Source: Escherichia coli (GTDB taxonomy: Bacteria; Pseudomonadota; Gammaproteobacteria; Enterobacterales; Enterobacteriaceae). From it: a stretch of 64,000 nt of DNA. Where the stretch lies: assembly GCF_003790525.1 (NCBI RefSeq), contig NZ_CP033635.1. One strand, given 5' to 3'. This document shows, piece by piece, positions 4,079 through 5,682 of this stretch (position 1 is its first letter; each line of letters begins with the position of its first letter). The notes beneath the pieces are model-generated. The model saw only the letters and a program-made list of their open reading frames with translations. It was not told where the DNA came from and ran no database searches. Both the position numbers and the translations under genes were made by a program.

Positions 4079-5481
4079 AACTTGCACCGAACGTAAAACT
4101 GTTACCGAAAGATAAACACACTGAGGCGGTTATTTTTGCGGGTGATAATGCTCACTCCTTTGCAGAACATTACATGATTGCACAGGCCAAAAAAGCAGGC
4201 GATCCCATCCCTCCGGTTTATCTGGGCCGTTATCAGTTAAGCGAACTGGACAACTTACAGATTGTTGATGAAGGACGATACAGGGTAAAGGTCATACGCG
4301 CCGGAAACCTGGACGATATGCAGATGCTGACCATTGCCACAAAACTGGCGATCGCCGGAGTCCAGGAGGCGCGGCTACTTTCTGAAAATTTCGAACTGCT
4401 GGAGGACTGGAGCGACCAGCTACCACGACTACGGGAAACATGGGAGAGAGGGGAAAGCCTGGTCATGAATGGCGGAAAGCGAAAAATCACACTTCCCATC
4501 TCATGGGGTTCTGAGGGATTCGACGCGCAGCAAAGCTACGTAATTAAGGGGCTTATTCCGGCTGAATCATTATGCAGCACCTACGGGGCCAGCGGTTCCT
4601 ATAAATCGTTCCTCGCTATTTCCTGGTCGTGCCATGTTGCCACAGGTATGGCATGGGGAGGCCGCAGGGTAAGTAAGGGGGCGGTTATCTATATCGCTGG
4701 TGAAGGCAGCATGGGCGTAAAACGCCGCGTTAAGGCGTGGGAGATAACCCACGACAAGGTGGTTACAGATTTGTGCATCATTAACGCGCCTGTTTTCCCT
4801 GCATCGCCTGACTATGTGGAGCAGGTTATCAGGACTGCCGGACTTGTTAAGAGCAGAACGGGCGAAAATGTGCGGCTGATTGTGATCGACACACTGGCCC
4901 GTTGCTTTGGTGGGAATGATGAAAATGATTCCCGTGATATGGGCGCATTTATCCAGGGGTGTGACGCGATAAAGCAGGCCACAGGGGCCACGGTGCTGGT
5001 GGTTCACCATTCCGGCAAGGATGAAACAAAGGGGGCGCGTGGTTCCAGTGCATTCCGTGCCGCGCTTGATGCAGAGTACCGAATCAGCAGGGAAAATTCA
5101 GACGTTACAGCACTGGTGGCGGCGTGTACGAAGATGAAGGACGCAGAGGAGCCAAAAGAGAGTGCATACGACCTTAAAAGCGTGGAGGTGTTCACCGATA
5201 CAGATGGCGAAGAAATTGTGTCCATGGTGGTGATTGACGTTCCCCGCGCCCCTGCTGAACTGGAGCGCATCGAGGAGGCAGGCAACAAGACGGAAAACCA
5301 TACCGCGCTATGGGGGTGCATCCGTTCACGCACACAGAACGGCGACAAGTGCACGATCCCGCTGTTACGTGATGACATGAAACGGCTTGGGTATGACGTG
5401 AAAAATATGCGGCGATGGTTAGCCAAACTGGAAAAAGACGCCGTGATTTACATTGATGGTGATGATGTAGGACCACTGTAA
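4075..5481 (+). CDS. Replication initiator / RecA-fold helicase-type ATPase (RepA/DnaB-like) with C-terminal putative origin-binding domain
   Basis: 468 aa; Walker A-like GASGSYKSF, Walker B-like LIVIDTLAR, VLVVHHSGKDETKG; an iteron array lies immediately downstream. Confidence 0.7.
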   Translation: MKLAPNVKLLPKDKHTEAVIFAGDNAHSFAEHYMIAQAKKAGDPIPPVYLGRYQLSELDNLQIVDEGRYRVKVIRAGNLDDMQMLTIATKLAIAGVQEARLLSENFELLEDWSDQLPRLRETWERGESLVMNGGKRKITLPISWGSEGFDAQQSYVIKGLIPAESLCSTYGASGSYKSFLAISWSCHVATGMAWGGRRVSKGAVIYIAGEGSMGVKRRVKAWEITHDKVVTDLCIINAPVFPASPDYVEQVIRTAGLVKSRTGENVRLIVIDTLARCFGGNDENDSRDMGAFIQGCDAIKQATGATVLVVHHSGKDETKGARGSSAFRAALDAEYRISRENSDVTALVAACTKMKDAEEPKESAYDLKSVEVFTDTDGEEIVSMVVIDVPRAPAELERIEEAGNKTENHTALWGCIRSRTQNGDKCTIPLLRDDMKRLGYDVKNMRRWLAKLEKDAVIYIDGDDVGPL

Positions 5482-5682
5482 AAAGTGAGTGGCAAAAGTG
5501 AGTAATGGTGAGGTTTTTACAAAATATTAACACAATTACTCACTTTCTCACCTGTATACATGCTCAAAAGTGAGCAGTGAAAAAACACTTATGAAACATG
5601 CACATACAAAACACAAAAATCTCAAGTGAGACGAAGCGAGACGCTTTAAAAAGTGAGTAGTAAAAGTGAGAGATGGTGAGCA
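5481..5682. promoter_or_regulatory. Putative replication origin: array of about 10 AGTGAG/GGTGAG iterons in both orientations with AT-rich spacers
   Basis: Motif counted by eye; position directly 3' of the Rep gene. Confidence 0.55.

Follow-up and report, generated by a model that had tools for sequence, protein, structure and literature searches.

Positions 5482-5680 of the window, the 64-kb stretch of Escherichia coli DNA analyzed here, very probably constitute the origin from which an 11-kb phage satellite of the PICI type carries out vegetative replication, as judged by analogy with replicons of this kind. A Rep-bound origin directly after rep had been proposed in a first-pass annotation, and this proposal is well supported: the genomic context, the origins of homologous elements and the covariation of the iterons with the C-terminal domain of Rep all favour it. 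The origins of Gram-negative PICIs have been described as lying 3' of rep, with two iteron sets around an AT-rich region (Fillol-Salom et al. 2018, ISME J, PMC6092414), and the rep-ori fragment of EcCICFT073 is known to drive plasmid replication, with rep or ori mutants failing to do so (PMC6092414). The functional support taken from these precedents is one of layout analogy, and not of orthology, because the validated EcCICFT073 replicon has a non-homologous helicase. The origin belongs to an already known type, of which it is a real yet ordinary further example.

The putative origin comprises eleven 8-bp iterons (AAAGTGAG and variants), with an A-rich, AT-rich centre separating six on the left from five on the right:

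5482..5512, + strand: left outer triplet, with AAAGTGAG at 5482-5489, AAAGTGAG at 5495-5502 and atGGTGAG at 5505-5512
5513..5538, no strand: AT-rich spacer, 85% AT
5539..5554, - strand: inverted iteron pair CTCACTTT / CTCACCtg, then conserved TGTATA
5567..5574, + strand: sixth left-hand iteron, AAAGTGAG
5575..5623, no strand: central A-rich, AT-rich region (65-75% AT), candidate melting site
5623..5680, + strand: right set, with cAAGTGAG at 5623-5630, degenerate gAAGCGAG at 5633-5640, AAAGTGAG at 5650-5657 and, as its last two iterons, AAAGTGAG at 5663-5670 and atGGTGAG at 5673-5680

The first iteron begins at 5482, one base past the TAA stop codon of rep (5479-5481). Start-to-start spacing within the left outer triplet is 13 and 10 bp, and the positions of its members are conserved in homologous origins. 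These origins also preserve CACCTGTATA across all iteron types, and the central region holds a block, AAAAAA..TTATGAAACA, that is conserved in 64 unique origins whatever their iteron type. A 37-nt block containing three iterons (5476-5512) is repeated 168 bp away, at 5644-5680, with 86% identity. The left set encompasses four iterons on the + strand and two on the - strand, and the right set five on the + strand and none on the other; the rule formulated for SaPIs, by which iterons flanking the AT-rich region on either side are oppositely oriented, is worded in a way that is open to several readings (PMC9371898). On inspection by eye, neither a DnaA box nor an IHF consensus could be made out convincingly in the origin.

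The first-pass annotation had noted about ten copies of AGTGAG/GGTGAG, in both orientations and among AT-rich spacers, after the Rep stop, and had suggested a motif count and a shuffle-based enrichment test, both of which bore the observation out. Ten exact RGTGAG hexamers were located in 5481-5682, eight of them on the + strand (5484, 5497, 5507, 5569, 5625, 5652, 5665 and 5675) and two on the - strand (5539-5544 and 5547-5552), together with one degenerate copy (AGCGAG at 5635). These ten compare with about 0.2 expected, the window-wide density of the hexamer corresponding to 0.19 instances per 202 bp. When the 64 kb were shuffled 300 times with dinucleotides preserved, the densest 202-bp span per shuffle averaged 2.2 RGTGAG instances and never held more than 4, and 2000 shuffles of 5481-5682 itself gave a mean of 0.28 and a maximum of 3. 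The full iteron unit is longer than the hexamer and corresponds to AAAGTGAG, for which six of the seven copies in the 64 kb fall within 5481-5682; in the first 13 kb, every copy falls in the origin. Instances of RGTGAG outside the origin are scattered, and the true iteron does not cluster anywhere else within the island.

The gene preceding the array encodes the presumed initiator, identified as a RepA-family helicase through Pfam AAA_25, a PDB profile and Foldseek:

4075..5481, + strand: rep, 468-aa RepA-family helicase
5284..5478, + strand: codons of the predicted Rep C-terminal winged-helix domain, residues about 404-468
5398..5436, + strand: codons of the predicted recognition helix VKNMRRWLAKLEK, residues 442-454, with Asn444 at 5404-5406

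Rep residues 146-317 match Pfam AAA_25 (E = 6e-42), and no other Pfam family was detected on the protein at E <= 10. The PDB profile match for the Rep core is RSF1010 RepA (1G8Y, E = 3e-11), and structural matches with Foldseek include RepA (1nlf, 1g8y, 1olo), Rad51-family recombinases, T7 gp4 and KaiC; the top PHROG is phrog_2850. The Walker A motif is atypical (GASGSYKS) and invariant throughout the family. Structural modelling predicts the C-terminal domain to be a winged helix resembling the Orc/Cdc6 origin-binding domain, and the boundaries of the recognition helix were taken from AF2 models.

Sequence comparison indicates that the iterons match the winged-helix domain of the cognate Rep, their predicted reader. 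Residue 444 tracks the fifth iteron base in all 105 unique Rep/origin pairs, with Asn444 accompanying A (45/45), His accompanying G (38/38), Lys accompanying G (17/17) and Ser accompanying C (5/5), so that the core reads GTGAG with Asn, GTGGG with His or Lys and GTGCG with Ser. Within a single origin, the majority base at position 5 is shared by 86-100% of the copies. The iteron type is followed by the last ~70 residues of Rep only, and neither by residues 1-400 nor by DUF4222. Between the homologous loci L003 and L005, the final 72 Rep residues are identical except for H444N, and the iterons present 8 G versus 8 A. Other E. coli PICI origins keep the same 11 iteron slots, with the core type (GTGAG or GTGGG) switching in all copies together; hybrid origins also occur, as in L007, which combines GAG iterons on the left with some GGG iterons on the right. 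Physical linkage adds to the covariation, because no more than 200 bp separate the C-terminal domain codons from the origin; the concerted change of all copies in one origin is unexplained by such linkage. We also considered whether helix residues set the base after the core (GAGT, GAGG, GGGC). The same helix, DVKNM..A, pairs with both AGT and AGG, and the specificity claim is therefore limited to position 5. The notion that co-resident PICIs always differ in iteron type was likewise rejected, since in three genomes a single type is shared by two or three elements.

On balance we lean slightly towards a broader proposal, namely that residue 444 alone, at the start of the recognition helix, sets the origin specificity of RepA-type PICIs (Asn for A, His or Lys for G at the fifth position of GTGNG), and that these RecA-fold initiator-helicases reached the origin design of AAA+ Reps (SaPI, EcCICFT073) independently. 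If true, a one-codon change coupled with concerted change of eleven iterons would give rise to new specificity groups, and the rule is testable, in that N444H should shift Rep from GTGAG to GTGGG origins. Such a specificity rule could explain the presence of several PICIs per cell, and be useful for orthogonal satellite-based vectors.

The rep-ori module resides in an 11-kb PICI-type phage satellite (approximately 28-11085 of the window) inserted between roxA (ycfD) and phoQ. Besides rep, the elements defining the island and its replication module are:

28..37, + strand: attL-like core GGACATACTT, left island boundary, one base off the att core of ycfD-phoQ PICIs
188-1438: integrase gene, after the attL-like core
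3791..4078, + strand: DUF4222 gene, its last four bases (4075-4078) being the first four of rep
6294..6704, + strand: single-stranded DNA-binding protein (SSB) gene (phrog_44, E = 1.5e-40)
11076..11085, + strand: attR core GGACATATTT, adjoining the phoQ end

The att core reported for ycfD-phoQ PICIs is GGACATATTT (Table S1, PMC6092414), and phoQ, phoP and purB come after attR. The DUF4222 annotation is present in all homologous islands, in which the product of 6294..6704 is also annotated as SSB and forms part of the island replication module. The island presents the features used to recognize PICIs (an integrase, a specific att site, a size of ~11 kb, cos sites and a rep-ori module), and its gene set matches that of Gram-negative PICIs, encompassing integrase, DUF4222, a RepA-family helicase, SSB, a capsid gene, cos sites and the att core. 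Its integration site is shared with EcCICFT073 and EcCIRM12579, and the published PICI list includes islands with this Rep type, at the EcCIRM12579 (like L002) and EcCI042 (like L001) sites (PMC6092414). A comparison of the rep-ori module against 50,697 phage records returned weak partial matches only.

Under the proposed mechanism, a helper phage would induce the island, and Rep oligomers would dock via their winged helices on both iteron sets, melt the AT-rich centre and then self-load as the replicative helicase. Single strands would be coated by the island SSB, with host primase and polymerase finishing replication, and the resulting concatemers would be cut and packaged at the lambda-like cos sites of the island. 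The main use of these results is in annotation, providing the putative origin, initiator, DNA-reading helix, att sites and packaging sites of one E. coli satellite.

The first-pass annotation had also pointed to a related motif, TTTTCACCTG, at about 7141, 7217 and 9678. The copies are real, with exact instances of TTTCACCTG at 7142, 7219 and 9679, but they are unlike the iteron, because the reverse complement of TTTCACCTG contains GGTGAA and not GGTGAG. The accompanying suggestion that these motifs may form a second cis-replication region found no support: the alignments place them inside two lambda-like cos sites, and the true iteron has its only island cluster in the origin. The segments involved are:

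7011..7250, + strand: cos1, lambda-like, alignable to the cos junction of lambda and to the cos-terS junction of a prophage
9549..9740, + strand: cos2, cos repeated in direct orientation, containing the third TTTCACCTG (9679-9687), with 9586-9597 aligned to the lambda cohesive end
9860..9945, - strand: inverted partial cosN-like copy, 86% complementary to 9556-9641 over 86 nt

The cos1 site presents an equivalent of the cohesive end, GGGCGGGAGCAT, at 7048-7059, and window position 7048 (query position 49) is where the phages cdtI and Tritos have the start of their genome records. It also contains two TTTCACCTG repeats at the cosB position (7142-7150 and 7219-7227), and ends in a remnant of the terS start codon. 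In cos2, an 82-nt repeat is 93% identical to 7011-7092. An Rfam search of 1-11200 returned no match at E <= 0.1, and this GC-rich repeat is therefore not a known RNA; it turned out to be cosN. All three TTTTCACCTG motifs are located downstream of cosN and upstream of the terS remnant. Based on their position and their conservation in the prophage, these motifs are candidate sites for the terminase small subunit, which in lambda binds the R sites of the cosB interval (PMC9026076).

That the TTTTCACCTG motifs might instead serve the capsid operon, as promoter elements or as binding sites for an activator, and not be terminase-binding cosB repeats, appears doubtful, with a minor share of the probability. 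Each motif does lie in an AT-rich intergenic stretch, 3' of a terminator-like hairpin and 5' of genes, and weak -35/-10 matches are found near 9647-9674 and 9724-9751. Against this, a lambdoid prophage has these same two motifs, at the spacing seen here, between cosN and the terS start codon, and the phage genome end, at the cohesive end, maps 94 and 171 bp upstream of the cos1 motifs, an interval corresponding to lambda cosB. The promoter and cosB roles are mutually compatible.

Three other readings bear on the array itself. It is improbable that the repeats function mainly as an operator or promoter through which Rep or another island regulator controls the downstream genes (5683/5729 onward). 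The array occupies the whole intergenic space, its last iteron ending 2 bp before the ATG at 5683, and iteron-binding initiators often autoregulate, as seen in iteron plasmids, which counts in favour of an operator. A consensus scan, however, detected no sigma-70-like promoter within 5481-5682, and the arrangement of two sets around an AT-rich centre is the layout of validated PICI origins. Furthermore, the downstream gene is swapped in relatives that retain rep and the array, and the array therefore travels with rep. A regulatory side-role may exist alongside the origin function of 5482-5680.

That the array is a partition site of centromere-like type, or is recognized in packaging, is far less probable still: partition sites likewise consist of short repeats in two blocks, as in parC of plasmid R1, but no ParA/ParB/ParR-like gene was seen within the island, the two lambda-like cos sites already account for packaging, and the repeat sequence covaries with the helicase winged helix.

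The core had also been likened to the iteron bound by P4 alpha. The sequence given for that iteron, TGTTCACC, agrees with the P4 GenBank annotation, from which the P4 iteron, ori and crr were taken, but the link to this origin failed, since the origin lacks TGTTCACC, the single island copy of which lies inside rep at 5189, and Rep is unlike alpha (BLASTP, no similarity, E = 0.3). A P4-type bipartite replicon, with alpha-like iterons and TTTTCACCTG as a distant crr-like region, is accordingly refuted at the sequence level and retains a negligible probability: P4 and the island are alike in being phage satellites of E. coli whose short iterons run in both orientations, and the GGTGAG variant has TCACC in common with TGTTCACC, but Rep is an AAA_25 and not a D5/SF3 helicase, RGTGAG is absent from P4 ori and crr, and the distant motif does not have the iteron sequence and sits in cos sites.

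The island cosN flanks can be aligned with lambda, and the 12-nt cohesive end is positioned where the cdtI and Tritos records begin; unlike the lambda-type cos of these phages and of prophages, the island cos has lost the terS start (ATG to GTG) with no terS following, and its region is duplicated directly, with a partial copy inverted. P4 alpha is likewise the initiator-helicase of an E. coli satellite with 8-bp iterons in both orientations, but P4 has ori and crr 4.5 kb apart with the same iteron in both, whereas the island has one cluster. Classical iteron plasmids (Rep_3/RepA/pi/TrfA) use tandem direct iterons of 17-22 bp and a WH1-WH2 initiator without helicase, and this type was rejected for the island, where the units are 8 bp long, occur in both orientations and form two sets, and the presumed initiator combines a helicase with a single winged helix. 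Among solved structures, the RSF1010 RepA hexameric helicase (1G8Y, 1NLF, 1OLO) is the closest relative of the Rep ATPase core. RSF1010 RepA is a bare helicase of ~280 aa, with origin recognition carried out by a separate protein, RepC; Rep differs in its fused, predicted winged helix and its extra N-terminal domain.

SaPI Reps are self-loading helicases in which a C-terminal winged helix reads the iterons (PMC9371898). The SaPI Rep/ori systems (Ubeda et al. 2007; Rep1 and PriRep5 cryo-EM, PMC9371898) resemble the island in having an origin immediately downstream of rep, 6-12 iterons of five to eight nucleotides that surround an AT-rich centre, and a winged helix at the C terminus of the helicase that determines origin specificity, a role that is predicted for Rep; the mechanism proposed for Rep, that of a self-loading initiator-helicase, is also the same. 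They differ in that SaPI Reps are AAA+ proteins (SF3/MCM-like), and Rep a RecA-fold protein similar to RSF1010 RepA; no sequence relation is detectable, the host here is Gram-negative and the iteron sequence is another.

EcCICFT073 shares with the island the att site (ycfD/roxA-phoQ), an origin directly 3' of the replication gene, ~11 short iterons in two sets flanking an AT-rich region, and two cos sites, which are functional in EcCICFT073 (PMC6092414). The replication proteins share an N-terminal domain of ~125 aa with 47% identity. The EcCICFT073 initiator is, in contrast, a 584-aa D5_N/DUF5906/Pox_D5 primase-helicase acting with YCTACC iterons, whereas Rep has a RepA/AAA_25 RecA-fold core and AAAGTGAG iterons, so that the relation between them is one of analogy and not of orthology. 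The island L003 (strain 'clone D i14') is not EcCICFT073: the CFT073 island carries a different replication gene, and the argument from orthology is therefore reduced to one from analogy. Two non-homologous helicase types, carried by E. coli PICIs at one att site and with one origin design, argue for convergence or module exchange, and not for PICI origins having simply descended from a common ancestor, as the 2018 paper suggested.

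The 202 bp located 3' of the open reading frame encoding Rep (4075-5481) contain ten exact RGTGAG hexamers, eight on the plus strand and two on the minus strand, as expected from the roughly ten repeats in both orientations reported after the Rep stop codon by the first-pass annotation. From its frequency across the window, a stretch of 202 bp should contain only 0.19 copies of this hexamer. When the whole window was shuffled 300 times with dinucleotides preserved, the richest 202-bp span had 2.2 copies on average and at most four, and 2,000 shuffles of the array region itself yielded a mean of 0.28 and a maximum of three. 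The enrichment proposed for checking by motif counting and shuffling is hence confirmed. Furthermore, six of the seven occurrences of the longer true unit, AAAGTGAG, within the 64 kb fall in the array, which is organized as follows:

5484, 5497, 5507, 5569, 5625, 5652, 5665 and 5675, plus strand: RGTGAG, eight copies
5539-5544 and 5547-5552, minus strand: RGTGAG, two copies
5635: degenerate iteron AGCGAG
5476-5512, repeated at 5644-5680 (168 bp apart): 37-nt three-iteron block, start-to-start spacing 13 and 10 bp
5513-5538: AT-rich spacer (85% AT), between the two 37-nt blocks
5539-5554: inverted iteron pair, between the two 37-nt blocks
5567-5574: lone iteron, between the two 37-nt blocks
5575-5623: A-rich, AT-rich centre
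5623-5640: iteron pair, 10 bp spacing

The array lies in a PICI-type phage satellite (~28-11085), followed by phoQ, phoP and purB, with these features:

28-37: left boundary, GGACATACTT
188-1438: integrase
2054-2890: repressor-like gene
3791-4078: DUF4222
4075-5481: RepA-family helicase (Rep)
6294-6704: SSB
7608-9524: prohead protease/capsid fusion, 638 aa, ClpP-like protease
11076-11085: right boundary, att core GGACATATTT

The sequence GGACATATTT is the att core of the ycfD-phoQ PICIs EcCICFT073 and EcCIRM12579 (Fillol-Salom et al. 2018 Table S1, PMC6092414), and EcCICFT073 occupies the same site in the CFT073 genome. The rep-plus-array segment has at least a partial match in 751 of 5,426 genomes, encompassing hundreds of E. 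coli chromosomes, and the islands carrying it in other E. coli present the same gene order; against 50,697 phage records, the rep-ori segment returned only weak partial matches. The regulatory region (2054-2890 and 3241-3480) is unlike that of related islands, with a 278-aa protein bearing a C-terminal repressor-like domain (phrog_1743/6196) where loci L001-L004 have a short HTH regulator and Icd-like genes. Two direct copies of a 44-nt repeat (89% identity) are present towards the island's right end (10386-10429 and 10798-10841), with a 22-nt inverted partial match at 2317-2338, within the repressor-like gene. At window positions 20001-28000, the G+C content drops to 0.31-0.42, against ~0.50 elsewhere, which probably marks a further region of horizontal origin that has no relation to the array.

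The eleven iteron slots are conserved in related origins, whereas the core is type-specific and switches simultaneously in every copy. The window and loci L001, L002, L005 and L009 have AAAGTGAG, and L003, L004, L006 and L010 have AAAGTGGG; the non-iteron blocks CACCTGTATA and AAAAAA..TTATGAAACA are constant across iteron types. The Rep proteins are mosaic: the lineages of residues 1-400 are independent of iteron type, and the last ~70 residues track it. The window and L006 Reps share 92-97% identity in residues 1-400, yet their iterons are GAG and GGG, respectively, and L002, L004, L009 and L010, mostly 96-100% identical in residues 150-400, present four iteron types among them. The DUF4222 sequence does not track iteron type.

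We gathered a further 160 loci, 80 each from GTDB species genomes and IMG/VR. The covariation set consisted of 105 unique combinations of a C-terminal domain with its origin, each origin having four or more RGTGNG copies. In these pairs, residue 444, located in the predicted recognition helix of the Rep C-terminal winged helix, predicts the fifth base of the GTGNG core without exception: Asn with A (45/45), His with G (38/38), Lys with G (17/17) and Ser with C (5/5). The majority base is common to 86-100% of the iteron copies in any one origin. Recognition of adenine by Asn and of guanine by His or Lys is typical of major-groove readout. L003 and L005 are identical in the last 72 Rep residues except for H444N, and carry eight G and eight A iterons, respectively. 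The C-terminal codons are physically linked to the origin, which contributes to this association but cannot account for the concerted change of all copies within one origin. The L007 origin (1880-2095, E. coli KSC1031) is a hybrid, with GTGAGG left iterons, some GTGGGG right ones and a Rep with Asn444, and appears to contain a recombination junction.

The principal reading of the first-pass annotation, a Rep-bound origin following rep, is supported by a layout that fits PICI/SaPI origins and by the 105/105 correspondence between residue 444 and base 5. The array (5482-5680) is very likely the replication origin of the island, and it may have a secondary operator role. The observed basis for a mechanism consists of the array and its location, the domain composition of Rep and the covariation. 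Rep oligomers would dock onto both iteron sets via the winged helix, open the AT-rich centre and self-load as helicase; the island SSB and host primase and polymerase would then take over, and the resulting concatemers would be packaged at cos.

The array had also been likened to P4 alpha-binding iterons. In the P4 record, TGTTCACC is indeed the type I iteron in both ori and crr. Rep shows no similarity to P4 alpha (E = 0.3), RGTGAG is absent from P4 ori and crr, and TGTTCACC is present in the island as a single copy, within rep. Given the lack of protein similarity and of a common iteron, P4 family membership is therefore rejected. P4 alpha has a D5/SF3-type helicase region, a kind that notably belongs to the EcCICFT073 Pri-Rep and not to the window Rep.

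The TTTTCACCTG motif described as recurring at three places in the island was recovered as exact TTTCACCTG at 7142, 7219 and 9679, plus a distant copy at 29692. It differs from the iteron, its reverse complement being GGTGAA. The three island copies all lie within longer repeats. An 82-nt element at 7011-7092, with a direct copy at 9549-9630 (93% identity) and an inverted copy at 9860-9945, aligns with the lambda cos junction (GGGTCCTTTCCGGTG..TTACG/GGGCGGCGACCT/CGCGG in lambda, GGGTCC-TCCCGGTG..TCACG/GGGCGGGAGCAT/CGCGG in the window), and the cdtI and Tritos phage genome records both start precisely at window position 7048. A lambdoid prophage carries the same pair of motifs in the interval from cosN to the beginning of the gene for the DUF1441 terminase small subunit (terS), the start codon of which has decayed from ATG to GTG in the window. 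In lambda, this interval is cosB, holding the TerS-binding R sites (PMC9026076). The TTTTCACCTG motifs therefore belong to packaging sites, where their position makes them probable TerS-binding repeats, and are not the crr-like second cis-replication region initially proposed.

The island has two direct cos copies (cos1, 7011-7250; cos2, 9549-9740) and an inverted partial cosN (9860-9945). In cos1, a cosB of phage type is retained together with the decayed terS start, at 89-91% identity to phages cdtI, Tritos and HannyBb. EcCICFT073 also has two functional cos sites (PMC6092414). Unlike in cos1, no phage cosB could be found in EcCICFT073. The location of the protease-capsid gene between the two direct copies suggests recent capture from a helper phage. 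The protease/capsid fusion is of the gene type seen in lambdoid prophage L172, whose cos the island copies; EcCICFT073-like islands instead carry a capsid and decoration pair.

In Gram-negative PICIs, the origin directly follows the 3' end of the replication gene (Fillol-Salom et al. 2018, PMC6092414), and an EcCICFT073 rep-ori fragment maintains a temperature-sensitive plasmid, whereas rep or ori mutants fail (PMC6092414). SaPI Rep is a self-loading helicase, and its C-terminal winged helix recognizes 6-12 iterons that surround an AT-rich centre just downstream of rep (PMC9371898). The window array agrees with this description feature by feature. The EcCICFT073 initiator (584 aa; D5_N, DUF5906 and Pox_D5 domains), with eleven YCTACC iterons after its stop codon, is not an orthologue of the window Rep, which matches Pfam AAA_25 and has the RSF1010 hexameric helicase RepA as closest solved relative. 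Experimental support hence comes by analogy of layout within the element class, not by orthology. Both initiators share only an N-terminal domain (~125 aa, 47% identity; Rep residues 1-125, window 4075-4450, 6242-6620 in the EcCICFT073 locus) without a Pfam match, which may be a common docking module, e.g. for DUF4222 or a host factor. The 2018 PICI list includes islands carrying the same Rep type as the window, at the EcCIRM12579 (L002-like) and EcCI042 (L001-like) sites (PMC6092414). Distant RepA-type helicases (31-39% identity) were also found in MAGs of Nitrospinia, Alpha- and Betaproteobacteria and others (L085-L089). In these loci, the 225 bp after the rep stop codon hold 7-11 copies of unrelated 8-mers (GTGTCGCT, GCCGGACA, TGTCCCGC, GCGTCAGG), so that placement of iterons directly after rep seems to be a general trait of these helicases. 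The array is real and its main reading right, yet both the origin and the element that contains it are of known types. Modest, testable additions are the proposed specificity rule based on a single residue, the exchange of non-homologous helicase types next to a common N-terminal domain and the phage-like cosB kept in cos1.
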